Source of the DNA: Deltaproteobacteria bacterium | GTDB lineage: Bacteria; Myxococcota_A; Polyangia; Fen-1088 | NCBI GenBank assembly: GCA_033763315.1 | Contig: JANRKS010000034.1 | Coordinates: forward strand, 32,001-96,000 | Direction of reading: 5' to 3' | Length of the DNA stretch: 64,000 nt | Shown here: positions 9,119-44,981 of the stretch, piece by piece | Layout: every line of letters begins with the position of its first letter | Numbering within the stretch: the first letter of the stretch is position 1 | Translations under genes and position numbers: made by a program | The notes under the pieces: model-generated | What the model saw: the letters and a program-made list of their open reading frames with translations, nothing else | Told to the model about the DNA's origin: nothing | Database searches by the model: none

Positions 9119-10474
9119 TCACTTTAGCTGAACCTCGAACACCGTATCGATCGGATCAGGCATCGCAAAGGTGTGATGCACAGGTTTGGCGACGTTCATG
9201 AACACGTCCTGGCCGCTGTCTTGGCCAAACTTGTTGGTTCCTAAGTAGGCCTCCGCACGATCGGACACCAGGCGTGCATTCACGATCCTGTTTCGCACCC
9301 CGGGCAGCAAGATGTAGCTGATCGGTGGATCCGTTACGTGAACGTAAAGTGACTTTCCCTTTTGTGTGAAGCGCCCATATTCAGGCTTGGGCAGCGCCGC
9401 CGCTCCTGCGCCATAGACGCTCTCCCCGTTGACCTGCAGCCATCGGCCCACCTCATTCAACACGCGAACTGAATCTTCGGGAATGCGCCCGCGGCCATCG
9501 GGGCCCACGTTCAGCAGCAGGTTGCCCCCTTTGCTCACAGCATTCACGAGCGCTCCCACGATCTGCTTGCTGGTCTTCCATTGCTTATCGTTGCGGTTAA
9601 ATCCCCAGCTGTTGTTTAACGTTAAACACGTTTCCCAGGGCAGCAGGCGACCCTCCGCGTCGGTGGGAGCCACCTCAGGAATGCCCTGCTCGGGCGTCAC
9701 GAAGTCGCCGGTGCTCATGCCGTGGGACACGCCGTCCCCGCCCAACCGGTTGTTCAATATCGCTGTGGGTTGTGCCTGGCGCACCACCTTAAGCAGCTCT
9801 TTGGCTCGCCACGCTTCGCCCGTGAGTTTGTCGTAAGAGAAGTCAAACCACAGCACATCCAACTTGCCATAGTTGTGAACAATCTCTGAGATCTGGCCGT
9901 GCATGTACTTGAGGTAGCGATCAAAGTCGTGGCGCTTGTCTTTCCACGCCATGTTGTCGCGTTCGGGGTGGTGATGGTCGCCAAAGTGTGGGTAATCCTC
10001 GTGATGCCAATCAAGCAAAGAATAATACAGACCCACCTTGAGCCCTTCGGCGCGGAAGGCGTCAACGAACTCGCGTACCAGATCGCGCTTTGAGGCCGTT
10101 GCCGTCGACTTGTACGTCGTAAGCTTGCTGTCGAACAAACAAAACCCGTCGTGGTGTTTCGCGGTCATGACGGCGTATTTCATGCCCGCGGCCTTCGCGA
10201 GCTTGGCCAACGCCCGCGCGTCGAAATCCACTGGGTTGAAGCTTTGAGCGAATGGCTCGTAAGCCTCCACCGAAATCTTCTCAACGCTACGCACCCATTC
10301 GCCGCGGCCCAGGGTTGAATACACGCCAAAGTGGATGAACATGCCGAACCGCGCGTCCTGCCACCAAGCCAGATTGTTGGCGGGGCGAGAAGGCGCCGTT
10401 TTCACGGCTGGTGCGGCAACCGCCGTGGTGCAGAACAGTAAGGTCAGCCCTATGACACGCTGCAAAGTCGACAT
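9119..10474 (-). CDS. Secreted alpha-L-fucosidase (GH29)
   Basis: WWQDARFGMFIHFGVYS, TAKHHDGFCLFDS, LWFD and GGNLLLNVGP motifs; signal peptide. Confidence 0.93.
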   Translation of the reverse strand: MSTLQRVIGLTLLFCTTAVAAPAVKTAPSRPANNLAWWQDARFGMFIHFGVYSTLGRGEWVRSVEKISVEAYEPFAQSFNPVDFDARALAKLAKAAGMKYAVMTAKHHDGFCLFDSKLTTYKSTATASKRDLVREFVDAFRAEGLKVGLYYSLLDWHHEDYPHFGDHHHPERDNMAWKDKRHDFDRYLKYMHGQISEIVHNYGKLDVLWFDFSYDKLTGEAWRAKELLKVVRQAQPTAILNNRLGGDGVSHGMSTGDFVTPEQGIPEVAPTDAEGRLLPWETCLTLNNSWGFNRNDKQWKTSKQIVGALVNAVSKGGNLLLNVGPDGRGRIPEDSVRVLNEVGRWLQVNGESVYGAGAAALPKPEYGRFTQKGKSLYVHVTDPPISYILLPGVRNRIVNARLVSDRAEAYLGTNKFGQDSGQDVFMNVAKPVHHTFAMPDPIDTVFEVQLK

Positions 10475-36091: not shown

Positions 36092-36194
36092 ATCGCTTGC
36101 TCGAGCAGATTGAAGCCGCGACGTTCGCTTTCGCTGGGCGGCTCGGGTTTCGCCAAGTCATATGGGGCGGTATAACGGGCGCCTGGACAACCCA

Positions 36195-38177
36195 ATGAGC
36201 AGCGTCTTGTCTTCCTCCGCGCCCCGACGCGCGATCGTTCTTGCGGCAGGGCGGGGGCAGCCGATCGCCGAACCCGAAACACCCAACTGCCTCTGCAAAG
36301 TGGGTGGGATGCCACTCATTGAGCGCACGCTGCGCGTGTTGGCTGGGGCCGGCATCCGCCGCGTGGGCGTCACGATTGGCTGGCACGCCGATCTGGTTCG
36401 AGACGCGGTGAACCGCGTCCTGTCGTCCGATCCGAGCCTCGACTTGGAGATTTCGTTCTTTGTGAACGATCGATGGGATCAGCCCAACGGTCTTTCTGTC
36501 TTGGCGGCCCGCTCGTTTTTGACCGAGCGAACATTGCTGCTGATGGCGGATCAAATCGCGGCGCCTCACTTGGTGCATAAACTTGTGACCGCGGCGCCTG
36601 GCTCGGCGGAGATCGTGCTGGCCGTTGATCGCGAGCTGTCGCGTGTGTTTGATTTTGACGATGCTACGAAGGTGAAGTTATCCAGCCCACGCGCGGGCGC
36701 CACGGTGGATGGCATCAGCAAAACGCTGCTGGTCCACGATGGCATCAGTGTGGGTATGATGGTTGTGTCGCCGGCGTTGGTGCGGTGCTTGGACGAGCTC
36801 AAAACATCAAGCCTCACCGAAGGGGTCGCCTTGGCGGCCTCGCGCGGCCTGGTGGTGGCTCATGATGTGCACGGGGCCCTGTGGCAGGACGTTGATTCCG
36901 TCGATATGCGACTGCACGCCGAATGGTTGCTTCGCGTCTATGGCGGCGATCTGCTCCACCCCGCGATGAAAGCCGAAGGCCGCACGGGTGTGTCAGACAC
37001 ATTGGCGCTGATCGCGCAGTTGATGGCCGAGAAGGACACGCCTCGTTACACGCTGCTGAACCCTGGGCCGGTGATGACTTCGGCGCGGGTGAAGGCGGCG
37101 CTTGTGCATCCGGATCTGTGCCACCGCGACGGCGATTATTCTTCAGTCGTCAAACGCCTGCGCGAGAAGCTGAGGCCTGTGTTCCGTGCCAGCGCCGAGC
37201 ACGAAGTGATCCTGCTGACGGGCTCGGGCACCGCGGCTATGGAATTGGCGATTTCATCGTGCGTGCCCGCGGGTAAAAAGCTGCTGGTGGTCAACAACGG
37301 CGCCTTTGGTGATCGCATGGCAGAGGTGGGTGCTGTGCATGGCATTCCTGTTGTGATGATCCGTTGCGCGTGGGGCGAGATCCCGAACGCGGAAGACGTT
37401 GAGCGCGCTTTGCAAAATGATCCCGACATCGCCGTGGTGGCCATGGTTCACCACGAAACATCGGTAGGCGTTTTGAACCCTGTGACGGAGGTGGGCGCCG
37501 CGTGCGCCAAACATGATCGCCTGTTCATTCTCGACACGGTGTCGTCGTTGGGCGCCGAGGATTTGGATGTGATCCGCGACAACGTCGATATCGCTTATGC
37601 CTCCGCAAACAAATGCTTGCACGGCGTGGCGGGCGTGGCGTTCGCATGCATATCGCCGCGCGTGTGGCCACGCATCGAGCACGTGGCACCGCGCTCTTTC
37701 TACTTGAGCTTGTCACGTTACGAACACTATTTGCAGATGGTGAACCAAACGCCGTTCACGCCCGCCGTCACGGCGTTCTTGGCACTTGAGGCGGCGGTGG
37801 ATGAATTCACCGAACGCGGCGGGGGTGAGGTGCGCCGCAACACCTATCGCCTGCGCAACCTACGCGTGCGGCAGGTGCTCACGCAGGTGGGCTTTCACTC
37901 CTTCACGAACACTGGCCGCGAATCCTGTTCAATCTGCACGATGAAGGTGCCTCCGTTCTTGCGCGTGGATGAGCTTTACGATCGACTCAAAGAGCGCGGC
38001 TTCATCGCCTATAAATGCAAAGGGCCCTTGGCCGCCGATTACATGCAGATCGCCAATATGGGCGAACTGTCGGAGACTGACCTTGAAGGTTTCTTGGCGG
38101 CCGTCACCGAAATCGTGGATGCGGCGCGCCCGGCCGAACAACCGCCCACGCGCCGGCCGCAGCTCAAGTCGGTCTAA
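36195..38177 (+). CDS. Nucleotidyltransferase (LicC/PntC-like) fused to 2-aminoethylphosphonate-pyruvate aminotransferase (PhnW-like)
   Basis: AIVLAAGRG..WQDVDS N-domain; LLNPGPV, GSGTAAME, VHHETSVG, DTVSSLG and SANKCLHG (PLP Lys) C-domain. Confidence 0.88.
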   Translation: MSSVLSSSAPRRAIVLAAGRGQPIAEPETPNCLCKVGGMPLIERTLRVLAGAGIRRVGVTIGWHADLVRDAVNRVLSSDPSLDLEISFFVNDRWDQPNGLSVLAARSFLTERTLLLMADQIAAPHLVHKLVTAAPGSAEIVLAVDRELSRVFDFDDATKVKLSSPRAGATVDGISKTLLVHDGISVGMMVVSPALVRCLDELKTSSLTEGVALAASRGLVVAHDVHGALWQDVDSVDMRLHAEWLLRVYGGDLLHPAMKAEGRTGVSDTLALIAQLMAEKDTPRYTLLNPGPVMTSARVKAALVHPDLCHRDGDYSSVVKRLREKLRPVFRASAEHEVILLTGSGTAAMELAISSCVPAGKKLLVVNNGAFGDRMAEVGAVHGIPVVMIRCAWGEIPNAEDVERALQNDPDIAVVAMVHHETSVGVLNPVTEVGAACAKHDRLFILDTVSSLGAEDLDVIRDNVDIAYASANKCLHGVAGVAFACISPRVWPRIEHVAPRSFYLSLSRYEHYLQMVNQTPFTPAVTAFLALEAAVDEFTERGGGEVRRNTYRLRNLRVRQVLTQVGFHSFTNTGRESCSICTMKVPPFLRVDELYDRLKERGFIAYKCKGPLAADYMQIANMGELSETDLEGFLAAVTEIVDAARPAEQPPTRRPQLKSV

Positions 38178-38321
38178 ATCCCACCTATCCGAGACTAAAT
38201 TCATCCGCGGGGCAGGTTTTCCGGTAACCGGCCCGGGAATGTGCATTAATGCCCCCTCACAAGCGACGAGCCCCCTGAACAGTTCGGGGCGCGAGTCGCG
38301 GCTTACGAAAGACGTGTGGAA

Positions 38322-38519
38322 ATGCCTGAGGGAACGATTAAGAGGAAGACGGACAAGGGATTTGGGTTTATCGAGACAGGGTCCGGCCCAGACATGTTCT
38401 TTCACAGCTCCAGCCTTCAGGGTGTGTCGTTTGACCAACTGCAAGAAGGTCAACGAGTCTCCTTCACCGTGGGTCAGGGTCCTAAGGGCCCCCGCGCTGA
38501 AGGCGTGAAGGTCATCTAG
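38322..38519 (+). CDS. Cold-shock protein
   Basis: KGFGFI (RNP1), MFFHSS (RNP2), GPKGPRAEGV. Confidence 0.95.
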   Translation: MPEGTIKRKTDKGFGFIETGSGPDMFFHSSSLQGVSFDQLQEGQRVSFTVGQGPKGPRAEGVKVI

Positions 38520-38526
38520 TTACCGC

Positions 38527-38558
38527 CACGACCCGCGGTTTTGCGACCGCGGGTCGTG
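38527..38558 (+). terminator. Terminator hairpin after the cold-shock gene
   Basis: Perfect 13-bp stem CACGACCCGCGGT / ACCGCGGGTCGTG, followed by ATCTGTTGTT. Confidence 0.7.
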
Positions 38559-38583
38559 ATCTGTTGTTGATCCGACGTTCTGA

Positions 38584-38631
38584 TTGACAGGGCGGTCCCA
38601 AGTTCGTACACCCTTACGTAAACGTAAGGGT
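38584..38631 (+). promoter_or_regulatory. Sigma70-type promoter with overlapping palindromic operator for the merR-isc operon
   Basis: TTGACA (38584-89), 17-bp spacer, weak -10 TACACC (38607-12). Perfect dyad ACCCTTACGT-AA-ACGTAAGGGT at 38610-38631. Confidence 0.75.
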
Positions 38632-38636
38632 TCGAC

Positions 38637-39122
38637 ATGGACGTACCAGCTCTGCATCTTTCTTATCTCAAGGTCGGCGATCTAGCGCGCCGCACCGGAA
38701 AGACAGTGCGCGCGATCCACCTCTACGAGGAGCTGGGGTTGCTGGCGCCCATCCGGTCCAAAGGTGGCTACCGCCTTTACCACGCCCGGGCCGTTGATCG
38801 CGTCGAGTGGATTCAGAAGCTGCAAGATATGGGCTTCTCCTTGACCGACATCAAGGCGTTTTTGCAGGTGTGGGAGCAAAGCAGCACCGCTCCCAGCGCG
38901 ATGCAGACGGTGCGTGACATCTTTTCGGAGAAGCTGCGCGAAACCAACGACACGTTGGCGCGTTTGACGAAGTTGTCGCGCGAGTTAGAGGAGAGTTTGG
39001 CTTACCTCGACAGCTGCAAGTCGTGTGAGCCGGTTCATACGCAACAACAGTGTGGTTGTTGCGACATGCACGGCCACGAAGGGCATGCGCCCTTGCTGGT
39101 GGATGGCATCACCCGGCACTAA
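38637..39122 (+). CDS. MerR-family transcriptional regulator with Cys/His-rich C-terminus
   Basis: KVGDLARRTGKTVRAIHLYEELGLL..RSKGGYRLY HTH, MGFSLTDIK, tail CKSC-x8-CGCCDMHGHEGH. Confidence 0.92.
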   Translation: MDVPALHLSYLKVGDLARRTGKTVRAIHLYEELGLLAPIRSKGGYRLYHARAVDRVEWIQKLQDMGFSLTDIKAFLQVWEQSSTAPSAMQTVRDIFSEKLRETNDTLARLTKLSRELEESLAYLDSCKSCEPVHTQQQCGCCDMHGHEGHAPLLVDGITRH

Positions 39123-39140
39123 ACGTTTGAAGGAACCACG

Positions 39141-40358
39141 ATGGCTCTAAAATTCCCGATCTACATGGACAACAACGCCACCACGCCGATGGATCCGCGT
39201 GTGCTTGAAGCAATGTTGCCGTACTTCACAGAGCATTTCGGCAACTCTGCCAGCCGCTCGCACGCGTATGGCTGGGAGGCCGAAAAGGGCGTTGAGAAGG
39301 CGCGCGAGCACGTGGGTGAAAGCATTGGCGCCTCGGGCAAAGAAATCGTTTGGACTTCGGGTGCCACCGAATCCGACAATCTGGCGATCAAGGGCGCAGC
39401 GCACTTCTATAAAGACCGCGGCAACCACATCATCACGTCGCAAGTCGAACACAAAGCTGTGCTCGATACGTGCAAACGCCTAGAAAAAGAAGGCTTTGAC
39501 GTCACGTATTTGCCCACGCAGGCCGATGGCCGCATCAGCGCTGATTCGGTGGAAGCGGCGATGACCGACAAGACGATTCTTGTGTCGGTGATGTTGGCCA
39601 ATAATGAAGTGGGCGTGGTGAATCCGATTGCCGAGATCGGCGAGCGCGTCAAAGCGCGCAAGGCGCTGTTCCACGTGGACGCTGTGCAAGGGCACGGCCG
39701 CATCCCGTTCGATGTGGACGCCTGCAAAGTGGATTTGGCGTCTTTGTCCGCCCATAAAATGTACGGGCCTAAGGGCGTGGGGGCGCTTTATGTGCGTCGC
39801 AAACCACGCATTCGTCTTGAAGCGATGATCGATGGCGGTGGCCATGAGCGGGGCATGCGGTCTGGCACGTTGAATGTGCCGGGCATCGTGGGGTTCGGCA
39901 AAGCCGCGGCGCTTTGCATGGAGCTCATGCCACAGGAATCCAAACACAGCTTCGAGTTGCGCGAACGGTTGCGCAAAGGCATTCAGGCGCGCGTCAGCGA
40001 TACGTTCGTCAACGGTTCCATGGAGCACCGCTTGCCGGGCAACTTGAACATCAGTTTTGCGTACATCGAAGGCGAATCACTGCTGATGGGGCTCAAGGAC
40101 GTGGCTGTTTCGTCTGGTTCGGCCTGTACGTCGGCTTCGCTTGAACCGTCTTACGTGTTGCGTGCGTTGGGCGTCGAAGAAGAGTTGGCGCACACGTCGA
40201 TACGTTTTGGTATCGGCCGCTTCAACACCGAGGAAGAAGTGGATTACGTCATCGATTTGGTTTCACGCAAAGTGGGCAAGCTCCGTGAGCTGTCACCGCT
40301 TTACGAAATGGTCCAAGAAGGTATCGACATCAAGTCGATTCAGTGGACCGCTCACTAA
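39141..40358 (+). CDS. iscS: Cysteine desulfurase IscS
   Basis: [40 protein letters not shown] tail. Confidence 0.97.
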
Positions 40359-40385
40359 GGTTCGGCATCAAATAAGGGGATCGTC

Positions 40386-40814
40386 ATGGCATATAGCGAA
40401 AAACTTCTGGATCACTACGAGAACCCACGCAACGTGGGCAGCTTGGACAAGAACGACCCGCACGTGGGAACGGGTCTTGTGGGCGCGCCGGCTTGTGGCG
40501 ACGTTATGAAGCTGCAAATCCGCGTGAACGACGACGGCGTTATTGAAGACGCGCGCTTCAAGACGTTCGGCTGTGGATCCGCCATCGCGTCCTCGTCTTT
40601 GGCCACCGAGTGGATCAAAGGCATGAGCGTTGATCAAGCGATGCAAGTGAAGAACACGCAGATTGTGGAAGAGTTGAATCTTCCGCCGGTGAAGATTCAC
40701 TGCTCTGTGTTGGCCGAAGACGCGATCAAAAGCGCCATCGCCGATTACAAATCAAAGCAATTGGGGCGGCCAGCCGCGGCAGCGTCCGCTGAATCTGCAT
40801 CCGCCGCTAAGTAG
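40386..40814 (+). CDS. iscU: Fe-S scaffold IscU
   Basis: DHYENPRNVG, GAPACGDVM, FGCGSAIASSS, LPPVKIHCS. Confidence 0.98.
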   Translation: MAYSEKLLDHYENPRNVGSLDKNDPHVGTGLVGAPACGDVMKLQIRVNDDGVIEDARFKTFGCGSAIASSSLATEWIKGMSVDQAMQVKNTQIVEELNLPPVKIHCSVLAEDAIKSAIADYKSKQLGRPAAAASAESASAAK

Positions 40815-40845
40815 TCCTTTGTAAGGTTCAAGGAGAACACCTTCC

Positions 40846-41181
40846 GTGTCTATCGAAGTTAGCCCCCGCGCCGTTGAAGAAATCAAGAAGGCGGCAGCCA
40901 AGCGCGCCAACCCTCCCAAGGGGTTGCGGGTGGGCATCCGTGGTGGCGGGTGCACGGGCTTCACGTATCTGTTCGAGTGGGCGGACAACGATCCACGCCC
41001 AGAAGATCAGGTGCTGTCTTATGAAGACGGACGCGTGCAGGTGTTCATCGATCCGAAGAGCAAGGTATTTCTCGAGGGTTCAACTTTGGATTTTGCCACC
41101 ACGCTGATGCAACGCGGGTTCAAGTGGGTGAACCCCAATGCCAAGGGTGCGTGTGGCTGTGGCGAAAGCGTGCAGTTTTAA
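40846..41181 (+). CDS. iscA: A-type Fe-S carrier IscA
   Basis: GGGCTGFTY and NPNAKGACGCGES motifs; position in the operon. Confidence 0.93.
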   Translation: MSIEVSPRAVEEIKKAAAKRANPPKGLRVGIRGGGCTGFTYLFEWADNDPRPEDQVLSYEDGRVQVFIDPKSKVFLEGSTLDFATTLMQRGFKWVNPNAKGACGCGESVQF

Positions 41182-41268
41182 GCAACGTTGTGGGTGCGCC
41201 GCCTTGCGGGGGCGCTATCTTCGGCGTTGCCCCGTTGCCTTTGCCAGCGGGCGGGGCACGAGGCTTTT

Positions 41269-41919
41269 ATGATTTGTTGGTCCTGCCAAAAGAACGTTGC
41301 CGCCACGGAGTTTTGTTCCGCGTGTGGTGCGATTCTGCCACTTGATGGCCGCCCCGACCACTTCACTCTGATCGGCGCGCCGATGCGCTTCTCGCAAGAT
41401 ATGGCCGCCCTTGAGCGGCGCTATAAAGAGTCCACGCGCGCTGTTCATCCCGATAAGTTTGCGCGGGCCGACGCACAAGCGCGCCGCGCGGCCATGCAAC
41501 GCACAGTGGCCTTGAATGAAGCTTGGCGAACGCTGCGAGACCCGATCGCGCGTGCCGAGTATCTCGTGCGCCTTTTGGGCATTGATGTGGGCACAGAAGA
41601 CGGCACGCTTCGGCGCACGGAAACCGGGCAGGAGAAGGTTGCCGTTGATCCCACATTGCTGGCCGACATGATGGAAAAACGCGAGGCCCTCATGGAGGCG
41701 CGCGAGCAAGAGGATTACGCTGCCTTGGCAAGGCTGGCCCGGCAGGTGCGCGCCAGCTACGAGCAGGCGCTTTTGGAAGCGCAAACAGCTTTGGATAGGC
41801 AGGCCGCGGGCGACACCGAGCGTGCCGCAAAATGTTTGGTGGCGGTTCGATACTATCGCCGCTTTCTTGATTCGTTCGAAGACGGTGGCCACGCGTCGCC
41901 AGGAGCACAGCATGGCTGA
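41269..41919 (+). CDS. hscB: Co-chaperone HscB with N-terminal tetracysteine domain
   Basis: CWSC-x8-FCSAC, J-domain [19 protein letters not shown]. Confidence 0.92.
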
Positions 41920-43867
41920 AGCGTTATTTCAGATCTCAGAACCAGGAGAGTCGCGGTCGAAGGAAGCCTGCAAGGGTCGCGCGGCTGGGATTGATCTTGG
42001 CACAACAAACTCGCTCATCGCGATCGTGAATGCGGGCGAGCCCCAGTGCTTGCCTGACGAACGGGGCGAGGCGTTGGTTCCTTCCGCCGTTTATTACGGG
42101 GCGGACGGAACGATAGCGGTTGGCGCGCGGGCGCGGCACGAGTTGGCATTGGTGCACCCCAAGGACACGATTGTTTCGGTCAAGCGATTCATGGGGCGCG
42201 GGCCAAACGACGCGGAGGCCACGCGCAAGCTAACGCCCTACGTATTTGCGCCCAGCGCGGCTTCGGATCCGGTGGTGCGATTCTCTGTGGCGCAAGGCAA
42301 ACGGGCCGTTACCCCGATTGAAGTGTCAGCCGATATCTTGCGGGCGCTCAAACAGCGAGCGGAAGCGGCTTTGGACGGTCCTTTAGATGGCGTCGTGATC
42401 ACGGTGCCGGCGTACTTCGACGATGGCCAGCGGCAAGCGACGCGCGACGCTGGACGCTTGGCGGGGTTGGAGGTGTTGCGCTTGCTCAATGAGCCCACGG
42501 CGGCGGCCTTAGCGTACGGCCTGGACAAGAAGGTGGATGGCACCTTTGCCGTGTTCGATTTGGGTGGTGGCACGTTCGACATATCGATCTTGGTGCTGGA
42601 CGGCGGCGTGTTCGAGGTGAAATCAACAGGTGGCGATTCGGCCTTGGGCGGCGACGATTTTGATCGCGCGATCGCCGAAGTGCTGCTGGCGCGCGCGGGC
42701 GAAGATGCGGCGGCGGGTGGCAACGCGCAAGCGGCCCGGGCCGTGCTTGACGCAGCCAAGCGGGCCAAGGAAGCGTTGACGACGGCTCACGAAACACCCG
42801 TCTCGGTCACACGATCGGACCGGTCAGTGTGGAACGGCGTATTGACCCGTGCGGAGATGGAAGCGGCTTGCCAACCGGTGTTGAACCGATGCGCGCCCGC
42901 ATGCAAGCAGGCGATGAAAGACGCACACATTACAGTGGGAAATCTCGACGGCGTGATCCTGGTGGGTGGGGCCACGCGGATGCCGCTTGTGCGTGCGTTC
43001 GTCAAAGAGCTGTTCGGGCAAGAGCCTTTGGCTGACATCGATCCTGATCAGGTGGTGGCGCTGGGCGCCGCAGTGCAGGCTGAATTGCTGGCCGGCGGTG
43101 ACAACCCCGGCGACATCGTGTTGCTGGACGTGGTGCCTTTGTCACTCGGACTTGAGATGATGGGCGGTGTGGTGGAAAAGCTGATTCACCGCAACAGCAC
43201 CGTGCCGTGCGGCGCAACGCAGACGTTTACGACTTACGCTGACAACCAAACCGGTTTTGACTTGCACGTGGTGCAAGGCGAGCGCGAGATGGCACACGAA
43301 GGCCGGTCGTTGGCGCGCTTTAAGCTCACGGGCGTGCCGCCCTTGCCTGCGGGCATGGCGCGCTTGGAGGTGACCTTCACCGTGGACGCCGATGGCATCC
43401 TAAGTGTGTCGGCGCAAGAGTTGATGACAGGGCAAGTGGCCAGCGTGCAAGTGAAACCGAGTTATGGCCTCACGGACGAAGAGGTTGAACGCATGCTGCT
43501 GGATTCGTACGCGCACGCTGATGAAGACGTGCGCCTGCGTTTGCTCACCGAGCAACGCGTGGAAGCCGAACGAATTTTATCGGCCACACGCGCCGCGCTT
43601 GCCGCCACGCCCGAGCTTCTGCAGGGCGATGAGTTGCCGCGCATCGAAGAGTCGATGGCGGCGCTGGAATCGCTCAAAGGCGGCACGGATCACAACGCCA
43701 TTCACAAAGGCATCGAGAACTTGGATCTCACGTCCAAGAACTTCGCGGCCCGCCGCATGAACCGTGCGCTTGAACAGGGTTTGCGCGGCCGCGATTTGGG
43801 CGTCATTGAGCATGAAATTGAAGAGCACAAGGTGAAGTCACACGGAAGTTCGGAAGCTTCCCACTAA
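41912..43867 (+). CDS. hscA: Fe-S chaperone HscA
   Basis: [27 protein letters not shown]; operon context. Confidence 0.95.
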
Positions 43868-43878
43868 GGTCACACGCA

Positions 43879-44214
43879 ATGCCAAAAGTTCGTTTTTTGC
43901 CAGATGGAATTGAAACCGAAGTGGCCGCAGGCACGAGCATCCTCGAAGCCGCTCGCCAATGTGGCGCGCACGTGGGGTCTGCGTGCGGTGGCGTGTGTGC
44001 TTGTTCAACGTGCCACGTTTATGTGAAAGCCGGGTTTTCCGAGCTTTCAGATGTGCAAGAGAACGAAGAGGACATCATCGAAAAGGCTTTCGATGTGAAA
44101 GCCTCGTCGCGCTTGGGCTGCCAGGCACGCATGCAGGGCAGCGGCAGCTACGAAGTTGAGATTACGGCGGAAAGCCGCAAGGCGTTCTTAGACGAACACC
44201 CTGACCTTCGTTGA
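43879..44214 (+). CDS. fdx: ISC [2Fe-2S] ferredoxin
   Basis: CGGVCACSTCHVYV...SRLGCQ. Confidence 0.93.
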   Translation: MPKVRFLPDGIETEVAAGTSILEAARQCGAHVGSACGGVCACSTCHVYVKAGFSELSDVQENEEDIIEKAFDVKASSRLGCQARMQGSGSYEVEITAESRKAFLDEHPDLR

Positions 44215-44228
44215 ATCGTTGGCGCCGC

Positions 44229-44981
44229 TCACTTGGTCTTCGGGGCCAGCTGGGGGAAGTGCGTGGCCAATTCACCCATATCGACCCAAGCGCCAAGTTC
44301 GAGATCGGAAGGAAGCTCGACGCCTCCGTAAGCCACGCGGCACAAGCCCAAGACGTGGCTTCCCAGCGCCGCGAAGATCCGACGCACTTCGTGATAAGCG
44401 CCGCCCACGATGGTGATGCTCGCCAGGGCTTGCGTCTCGGGTGGCTGCACGAGGGCCACGTGCGCCTCGTGAGCGGCCAGCGGCCGTAGCTGCAAGACGT
44501 TCGGCTCGTGGCCGTCGTCGAGCACAAGCTTGTCGGGCAGCGTACCCGCGGGACGAGCCAAGGCGGCGTGGTAGGTGCGTGAGATCTCGTTCTTCGGATG
44601 CGTGAGCTTGTGCAACAGCTGGCCGTCTGTCGTCCACAACAACAAGCCCGTGGTGTCCTTGTCGAGGCGGCCCACAGCGCGTAAGTCGTCGAACAACGGC
44701 GCGTCGGCGATCAACTGCGCGGCTATGGGATGTTCACGATCTTTGAGCGCCGTGACATAGCCGGTGGGTTTGTTCAGCAGCAAGGAGAAGCTCTCTCGTA
44801 GCGTGACTTCGTCGTCACCGATTGTGACAGTCAACGGCAGCGCCGACTCAGCGATCGAAAAGCCGCCATCCTCCACAACATCGCCGTTCGGAAGCGTGAC
44901 CTGGCCTGCTCGAAGCCACTGGGTTACGTGCTTGCGCGAAGCACCCAAAGTGCGCGCGATGAGGCGATCAATTCTTGGCAT
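44229..44981 (-). CDS. rRNA pseudouridine synthase (RsuA-like)
   Basis: S4-like N-terminus, LNKPTGYV, VGRLDKDTTGLLL, GAYHEVRR. Confidence 0.88.
   Translation of the reverse strand: MPRIDRLIARTLGASRKHVTQWLRAGQVTLPNGDVVEDGGFSIAESALPLTVTIGDDEVTLRESFSLLLNKPTGYVTALKDREHPIAAQLIADAPLFDDLRAVGRLDKDTTGLLLWTTDGQLLHKLTHPKNEISRTYHAALARPAGTLPDKLVLDDGHEPNVLQLRPLAAHEAHVALVQPPETQALASITIVGGAYHEVRRIFAALGSHVLGLCRVAYGGVELPSDLELGAWVDMGELATHFPQLAPKTK

Follow-up and report, generated by a model that had tools for sequence, protein, structure and literature searches.

Organization of the locus

The DNA described here (the window) is a stretch of 64,000 nucleotides (nt) of contig JANRKS010000034.1, positions 32,001 to 96,000 of the forward strand, in GenBank assembly GCA_033763315.1 of a Deltaproteobacteria bacterium assigned to the class Polyangia of the Myxococcota_A. 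It carries an operon for iron-sulfur (Fe-S) cluster assembly of the ISC (iron-sulfur cluster) type, and the first gene of this operon, merR, encodes a MerR-family protein that probably fills the role of IscR at the isc operon. The features of the locus, in window coordinates, are as follows.

38316-38519: cold-shock gene, directly 5' of the terminator
38527-38558, plus strand: intrinsic terminator after the cold-shock gene, with a 14-pair stem (10 G-C pairs) followed by a T-rich tail
38584-38589, plus strand: -35 hexamer TTGACA, read from the sequence
38607-38612, plus strand: predicted -10 hexamer TACACC after a 17-nt spacer, called from conservation (relatives have TATnAC)
38610-38631, no strand assigned: 22-bp perfect palindrome ACCCTTACGT-AA-ACGTAAGGGT, which begins within the -10 hexamer, extends to about +12 and is presumed to be the operator of the MerR-like protein
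38637-39122, plus strand: merR, MerR-family regulator of 161 amino acids with ATG at 38637 and a C-terminal CxxC-x8-CxxC motif (C127, C130, C139, C142)
39141-40358, plus strand: iscS, cysteine desulfurase (NF010611, 679 bits, cut-off 548; TIGR02006, 661 bits, cut-off 643)
40386-40814, plus strand: iscU, scaffold (TIGR01999, 231.8 bits, cut-off 192.4)
40846-41181, plus strand: iscA-type gene for an A-type carrier (PF01521; TIGR00049, 102 bits, cut-off 58.8), scoring under the cut-off of the IscA equivalog
41269-41919, plus strand: hscB, co-chaperone (TIGR00714, 73.9 bits, cut-off 46.75), with a predicted start
41912-43867, plus strand: hscA, chaperone (TIGR01991, 809 bits, cut-off 708.55), with a predicted start at MAEALF... 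and an 8-nt overlap with the end of hscB
43879-44214, plus strand: fdx, [2Fe-2S]-type ferredoxin and final gene of the unit (PF00111; TIGR02007, 91 bits, under the cut-off of 132)

The start of iscS lies 18 nt past the stop codon of merR with no terminator in the gap, and the gene that follows fdx (44229-44981) runs in the opposite direction. Neither a known RNA family nor a tRNA was found in the isc unit. An earlier reading of this DNA, made from its letters without database searches and called here the sequence-only reading, had described a unit isolated by the terminator in which merR is followed after 18 nt by iscS and then by iscU, iscA, hscB, hscA and finally fdx, and every one of these elements was found in its place. 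SufB was not found in the genome to which the window belongs (90.85% complete), and ISC is the only Fe-S assembly machinery that was recognized there.

Conservation of the merR-isc arrangement

The linkage of merR to isc was followed in a close set of loci and in an even sample of the phylum. The close set consisted of 80 genome loci from metagenome-assembled genomes of Polyangia and Myxococcales, in which the regulator is 52-90% identical to that of the window. The gene iscS is directly downstream of merR in 79 of these loci, the contig of the 80th stopping 92 nt after merR, and the gene order is identical wherever the length of the contig allows it to be followed. Among 20 distant loci (37-47% identity) taken from the even sample, merR adjoins iscS in 19, and in an additional genome a 30%-identical member carrying the motif CKNC-x8-CQQC precedes iscS-iscU-fdx. 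The even sample comprised 201 genomes of the phylum, in which an orthologue was defined by E <= 1e-24 with the cysteine region covered, and IscU by a score over its cut-off. An orthologue was present in 48 genomes, IscU in 64 and both in 41; in each of these 41 the orthologue shares contig and strand with iscU and lies 1.3-1.9 kb upstream of that gene. About two thirds of the ISC-bearing genomes of this sample (42/64) have a MerR-type gene in the regulator slot, and most of the orthologue-bearing genomes have no recognizable sulfur mobilization (SUF) system to fall back on, no SufB match being found in 40 of the 48. With iscS after merR in 79 of the 80 close loci, the arrangement is far beyond chance, and the adjacency noticed in the sequence-only reading is conserved.

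Twelve other loci were compared. An Rrf2 gene is directly upstream of iscS in four isc loci among them, from two other families of the phylum, and no regulator was found in this slot in five isc loci from a further two families. The description of merR in the sequence-only reading as standing in place of IscR is thus borne out, since Rrf2 occupies exactly this slot in the four loci and merR has a genome-unique operator on its own promoter, as given in the following section.

Four loci of a single family (L083, L084, L088 and L089) show a different composition, with merR followed by a NifS-like desulfurase, iscA, hscB and a distant Hsp70-like gene (31-35%), and with no iscU. The NifS-like desulfurase is shorter than IscS and 52-56% identical to it, and the genomes of these four loci also have SufB. 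No recognizable operator was found in L088 and L089.

Promoter and operator

The regions upstream of merR in the 80 close loci and in the window (81 regions) were aligned. They share a pattern consisting of TTGAC(A/G/T), 17-18 nt, TAtnAC and then at once the palindrome (A/T)C(C/T)CTTACGT-nn-ACGTAAG(G/A)GT. The 14-position core of the palindrome is matched at 12 or more positions in 53 of the 81 regions and at 11 or more in 63, whereas of 1600 133-nt pieces taken at random from these loci just 9, some of which may be true sites, reach 12 or more. About ten loci with a mis-set start codon (an ATG inside the palindrome) and one with only 14 nt of upstream sequence were kept in these counts, and the mis-set start codons lower the number of operators recorded. 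In 44 of the 63 regions whose core matches at 11/14 or better, the operator centre follows the first T of TTGAC by 35-40 nt, a distance that places the site at about -9 to +12. A shorter variant, with a single central ACGT, occurs in some clades and retains the outer ACCC-N14-GGGT through a second GGGT. The geometry of a palindrome over the -10 and start is the same in most relatives and in two paralogues of the regulator that are linked to genes for extracytoplasmic function (ECF) sigma factors.

A weight matrix built without the window's own site gave 36.9 bits for the site in the window and 11.5 bits for the next best match in the 7.63-Mb genome, so that no second operator reaching 12 bits was found there; the predicted regulon of the MerR-like protein is its own operon. 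As an independent check, 23 distant loci outside the matrix set were scanned over 6-15 kb for matches of at least 8 bits. In 20 of the 23 the sole operator matches lie 13-242 nt upstream of the regulator gene, and three of these 20 are four-cysteine paralogues that head an ECF sigma gene instead of isc. The nine isc loci without merR gave no match (0/9). The palindrome thus travels with the regulator gene and not with the isc genes, which is the best available evidence that it is the operator of this protein, and the site at 38610-38631 is therefore presumed to be bound by it. Like IscR, the regulator is the first gene of an isc operon with a conserved, genome-unique site on the promoter, to which it is predicted to bind. 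We regard it as highly probable that the MerR-like protein is a dedicated autoregulator of isc acting through this palindrome.

The arrangement is unlike the canonical layout of a MerR activator. Classical activation by DNA twisting in this family needs a spacer of 19-20 nt that holds the operator, whereas the predicted promoter here has a 17-nt spacer and the palindrome begins within the -10 hexamer. Because the palindrome covers the -10 and the start of a promoter with a normal spacer, the bound protein would be expected to repress.

Several other assignments were considered and rejected. One was a MerR-style promoter in which TAAGGG would be the -10 and a 19-nt spacer would hold the palindrome; the matching -35 positions are not conserved between loci. 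A leaderless transcript beginning at the ATG did not fit the many relatives in which the palindrome is 40-110 nt from the start codon and the distance to TTGAC is kept. A 5.4-bit match at window position 9328, considered as a second operator, lies inside an open reading frame (ORF). The sequence at 38584-38599 resembles the site of RisR, an Rrf2 protein discussed below, but it is a near match only, having N6 and an incorrect final base, and relatives do not conserve it.

The regulator and its cysteine site

The merR ORF matched the Pfam domains MerR_1 (PF13411, 4e-16), MerR (PF00376, 2e-11) and MerR-DNA-bind (PF09278, 2e-10), and the protein has the N-terminal MerR-type helix-turn-helix and the long dimerization helix of the family. 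The Rrf2 winged-helix domain PF02082 was not found in it, Pfam giving MerR domains only. The AlphaFold 2 model has a mean predicted local distance difference test (pLDDT) score of 87.3 and consists, in its C-terminal part, of a helix at residues 85-127, the cysteine loop and a short C-terminal helix. All matches in the PDB are MerR-family structures, both by sequence profile, where MerR (4ua1), CadR, PbrR and CueR lead, and by Foldseek, where the top match is SoxR (2zhh). The cysteine loop follows the long helix, in the position that holds the cluster of SoxR and the metal of CueR and ZntR. The cysteine that metal-sensing MerR regulators have at the start of the dimerization helix is missing, the stretch reading WE-x3-TAP-x-AM.

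The regulator scored under every NCBIfam equivalog cut-off. The best score was obtained with CueR (74.4 bits, cut-off 147.4), and the others were ZntR 57 against 168, MerR 59.9 against 150.85, CadR-PbrR 57.3 against 151.45, SoxR (TIGR01950) 55.2 against 116.9 and HspR 39 against 105. Of 3257 candidates from a word-index search, 3156 were relatives at E <= 1e-3, and the top 120 all had an identity of at least 68%. Among 1.84 billion cluster representatives, 70 proteins matched at E <= 1e-30 and 764 at E <= 1e-10. A search of the ESM Atlas with tail residues 118-161 returned no usable match. The gene is placed in a large and apparently undescribed subfamily that belongs to no curated equivalog.

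The C-terminus of the protein, SCKSCEPVHTQQQCGCCDMHGHEGH, contains C127, C130, C139, C141, C142, H134, H145, H147 and H150. In 24 close relatives the residues C127, C130, C139, C142, E131, P132, G146, H147 and G149 are invariant and C141 varies, and an alignment of 61 sequences reaching down to 30% identity leaves just R25, Y30, L69 and the four cysteines invariant. Among the 103 genomic loci CxxC-x8-CxxC is found in 91 and the x9 form in 10 more, which gives one or the other in 101, and the HxH that follows the motif is kept in only 43. The best 150 cluster representatives have CxxC-x8-CxxC in 52 cases and CxxC-x5-12-CxxC in 78, many of the others being truncated fragments. With four cysteines invariant across the subfamily and C141 and the histidine run variable, the sensor is most simply taken to be a four-cysteine site. 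The sequence-only reading had pointed to a tail of five cysteines and several histidines; such a tail is present in the protein and the cysteine motif is conserved, a test that the reading had named, but C141 and HGHEGH are specific to the clade. On these alignments the fifth cysteine and the histidine run are a clade feature conserved only in close relatives.

An alternative reading makes the regulator a direct sensor of metal ions in the manner of CueR, ZntR and CadR, in which the four cysteines, with or without histidine, would bind a thiophilic ion such as Fe(II), Zn(II) or Cu(I) and would tune isc to the supply of metal or to metal poisoning of cluster assembly. The nearest models and structures are indeed those of metal-sensing MerR proteins (CueR at 74 bits; 4ua1, CadR, PbrR and CueR), the cysteine loop occupies the place of their metal-binding loop, close relatives add H134, H145 and H147, and the source annotation of relatives reads 'copper efflux regulator', although such names are automatic. 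However, the protein falls under all the relevant equivalog cut-offs (CueR, ZntR, MerR, CadR), the histidines are not conserved across the subfamily, the unit holds no efflux or uptake gene, the genome holds no second operator, and the operator follows the -10 of a promoter with a 17-nt spacer rather than lying in the 19-20-nt spacer of the metal-sensing MerR activators. We consider a metal-ion sensor of this kind rather improbable, and prefer a four-cysteine site that would hold an Fe-S cluster.

Four-cysteine members of the subfamily were also seen away from isc. Three of them (L091, 7061-8157; L109, 3036-4159; L110, 6287-7468) are paralogues with 38-39% identity that have an ECF-type sigma-70 gene directly after them; L109 and L110 have the layout of -35, 17 nt, -10 and palindrome, and the genomes of all three also hold a merR-led isc-like operon. 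Three further members (L115, 3809-4324; L116, 3668-4180; L117, 2333-2842) have about 30% identity and the motif CKSC-x8-CDEC and stand alone in SUF-only genomes of the same class that are without IscU, where they are not adjacent to suf. An ORF resembling RibA (GTP cyclohydrolase II, named by eye) lies near distant four-cysteine merR genes in L107 (1823-2821), L115 (808-1701), L116 (2296-2976) and L117 (2859-3791).

Proposed mode of control

That the protein binds the palindrome, in which direction it controls transcription and what cofactor it has are all deduced from sequence. In the proposed mechanism, a MerR-type dimer would bind the 22-bp palindrome over the -10 and the expected transcription start, and would there block transcription instead of activating it by the DNA twisting of typical MerR proteins. 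The four-cysteine loop directly after the dimerization helix would be the sensor, most likely by holding an Fe-S cluster that it receives from the ISC machinery. With its cluster in place the protein would repress, and loss of the cluster through high demand, iron shortage or oxidants would release the repression. Co-transcription of the regulator with the genes it would control makes this a negative autoregulatory loop, and the feedback would be the same as that of holo-IscR on the isc promoter, carried out by a different fold. We give about an even chance to this reading in full, namely a dedicated autorepressor of merR-iscSUA-hscBA-fdx with a four-cysteine sensor most likely holding an Fe-S cluster.

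A number of points weigh against it. A scan of 38200-44700 for consensus promoters called no sigma-70-type site, because the -10 hexamer TACACC lacks the final T; the promoter that the sequence-only reading had placed before merR is retained, with TTGACA at 38584-38589 as its -35, its call resting on conservation across relatives, and it is a prediction rather than a mapped start. The position of the operator is not uniform, one family (four loci, L085-L087 and L090) having it just upstream of the -35, where it fits simple occlusion less well, so the direction of control may differ between clades. The cysteine loop of the structural model has a pLDDT of about 70, which is moderate confidence. 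The spacing of the cysteines (CxxC-x8-CxxC) is unlike that of SoxR, which is CxxCxC-x5-C, and a pair of CxxC motifs is also a classic pattern of structural or redox-active zinc sites. Since the subfamily includes genes that precede an ECF sigma gene and others that stand by themselves in SUF-only genomes, the sensor is not tied to Fe-S assembly as such, and the four cysteines may read a more general signal. The sequence-only reading had suggested a convergent analogue of IscR: the conserved adjacency, the cysteine motif and the regulator's own genome-unique operator speak for that suggestion, but an Fe-S or metal cofactor with feedback is still conjectural, the computed results suiting Fe-S and Zn alike.

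The main rival keeps the same autorepressor and operator and gives the four cysteines to zinc. Oxidation of the thiols to disulfides would release zinc and then the DNA, and isc, or the ECF stress sigma factor in the case of the paralogues, would be induced, which would make the protein a switch for oxidative stress rather than a gauge of cluster supply. The two invariant CxxC pairs suit this well, such pairs being the usual layout of a Zn-thiolate site, and a general stress signal would suit both the paralogues that head ECF sigma genes with the same motif and operator position and the stand-alone member kept in SUF-only genomes. On the other side, where ISC is an organism's only assembly system, a switch that answers to thiol state alone would give no report of iron shortage or cluster demand, and nothing computed favors zinc over Fe-S. 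SufR reads cluster status through a cluster of its own. The known dedicated regulators of Fe-S assembly IscR, RirA and RisR likewise sense their own cluster, according to the available portions of the reports on them (PMC11672702, PMC9973013). A zinc-based switch is held to be unlikely, and we continue to favor the Fe-S-loaded autorepressor.

A further explanation assigns the main control of isc to an Rrf2 protein acting in trans and leaves the MerR-like protein a fine-tuning role only, or another target. No Rrf2 gene lies in the window, as the sequence-only reading had stated, but the genome as a whole has two Rrf2 matches, both on other contigs. They score 57.8 and 69.1 bits on the IscR equivalog, far from its cut-off of 207.55, and both have three-cysteine motifs. 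The genes (L001, 1492-1959, and L002, 1351-1953) are not near Fe-S assembly genes. One of the proteins is RirA/NsrR-like (128 and 124 bits, under the cut-offs) with C-x7-C-x5-C, and the other, with C-x9-C-x5-C, is encoded beside an ORF that by eye resembles a polyprenyl synthase. Either could act on isc in trans in the way that RisR, encoded at the suf operon, represses isc in Myxococcus xanthus in the accessible text of that study (PMC9973013), and this also counts against a leading role for merR. However, the RisR site TkGAC-N7-GTCCw is not present at the isc promoter here, the palindrome is the sole strongly conserved element of that promoter and follows merR even in front of a sigma gene, and neither Rrf2 gene has Fe-S assembly genes nearby. 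Control by Rrf2 in trans is considered very improbable, and a MerR-like protein acting on its own operon is preferred.

Comparison with known regulators

What is understood of the control of Fe-S cluster assembly comes almost entirely from Rrf2-type regulators and SufR. The closest functional parallel is IscR, the [2Fe-2S] Rrf2 regulator of Escherichia coli and other Proteobacteria, which shares with the protein described here its place as the first isc gene, an arrangement suited to autoregulation and a cysteine-based sensor. The two differ in fold, a Rrf2 winged helix in the one and a MerR helix-turn-helix with a coiled coil in the other being unrelated, and in their ligands, which are three cysteines and one histidine in IscR and the four cysteines of CxxC-x8-CxxC here. 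They differ also in reach, IscR controlling a regulon whereas the genome described here has one operator.

The closest parallel in fold is SoxR, a [2Fe-2S] redox sensor of the MerR family with four cysteines directly after the dimerization helix, and the arrangement of paralogue and ECF sigma gene recalls that of SoxR and SoxS. SoxR activates from a long-spacer promoter, whereas the spacer here is 17 nt and the operator lies over the expected start. The metal-sensing proteins MerR, CueR, ZntR, CadR and PbrR are closest by sequence, have a loop at the end of the long helix and use palindromic operators of similar size; the present protein differs from them in scoring under their cut-offs and in having no cysteine in the dimerization helix, no metal transport genes and no 19-20-nt spacer. 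HspR, CarH/LitR and GlnR have MerR-type DNA-binding domains and repress from operators that overlap promoters, which is the geometry proposed here, but they show no specific similarity to the protein and their sensor modules are different or absent.

In M. xanthus, isc is repressed by holo-RisR, of the Rrf2 subgroup IS6, through a site that covers the -10 and the start, as described in the part of the study that was available (PMC9973013). RisR belongs to the same phylum and performs the same task as the MerR-like regulator, but it is of the Rrf2 type, has its gene at the suf operon and acts in trans, and its site is unrelated to the palindrome. The same part of that study reports no regulator gene at the isc locus of M. 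xanthus and control by RisR, and contains no mention of MerR (PMC9973013). MliR of Bizionia argentinensis, an iron-responsive MerR-like protein, has no effector domain and no cysteines according to the accessible text of its description (PMC9478572); it resembles the present regulator in linking a MerR-family protein to iron homeostasis and differs in having no link to isc. A 2024 review of unconventional MerR metal sensors names, in its available portion, CoaR, MliR and NimR only. No description of a MerR-type regulator of isc or suf was found in a full-text search of the literature, subscription journals and supplements lying outside its coverage.

What appears to be new is the combination of a MerR fold with a new four-cysteine sensor, a repressor geometry and a new task, in a subfamily that is common and apparently unpublished. 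If a cluster does reside on the four cysteines, a second fold would have come to carry the feedback logic of IscR, with a repressor geometry that is unusual among MerR proteins, and the subfamily would be only the second Fe-S-sensing lineage of MerR proteins after SoxR. It would then represent a new class of Fe-S or redox sensor consisting of one protein and one 22-bp site, which might serve as a biosensor part. The broadest form of the proposal adds a third class of dedicated regulator of Fe-S biogenesis to Rrf2 (IscR, RisR, RirA) and SufR, in which a MerR-fold Fe-S repressor would read cluster supply through CxxC-x8-CxxC and shut its own isc operon from an operator at the start site, having displaced Rrf2 in most ISC-bearing Myxococcota, with sister paralogues driving an ECF sigma factor. 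To this form we give slightly less than an even chance.

Other features of the window

The start of hscB was picked by eye at the ATG of MICWSC..., the long ORF itself starting at 41188. Given this start, the protein has an apparent N-terminal CxxC-x10-CxxC extension in front of the J-domain (41269-41365). A zinc-finger-like N-terminus of this kind is known in eukaryotic HSC20. Two genes upstream of the isc unit, at 36162-38177, is an ORF of 671 amino acids that by its Pfam domains is a fusion of a MobA-like nucleotidyltransferase and a class-V aminotransferase.

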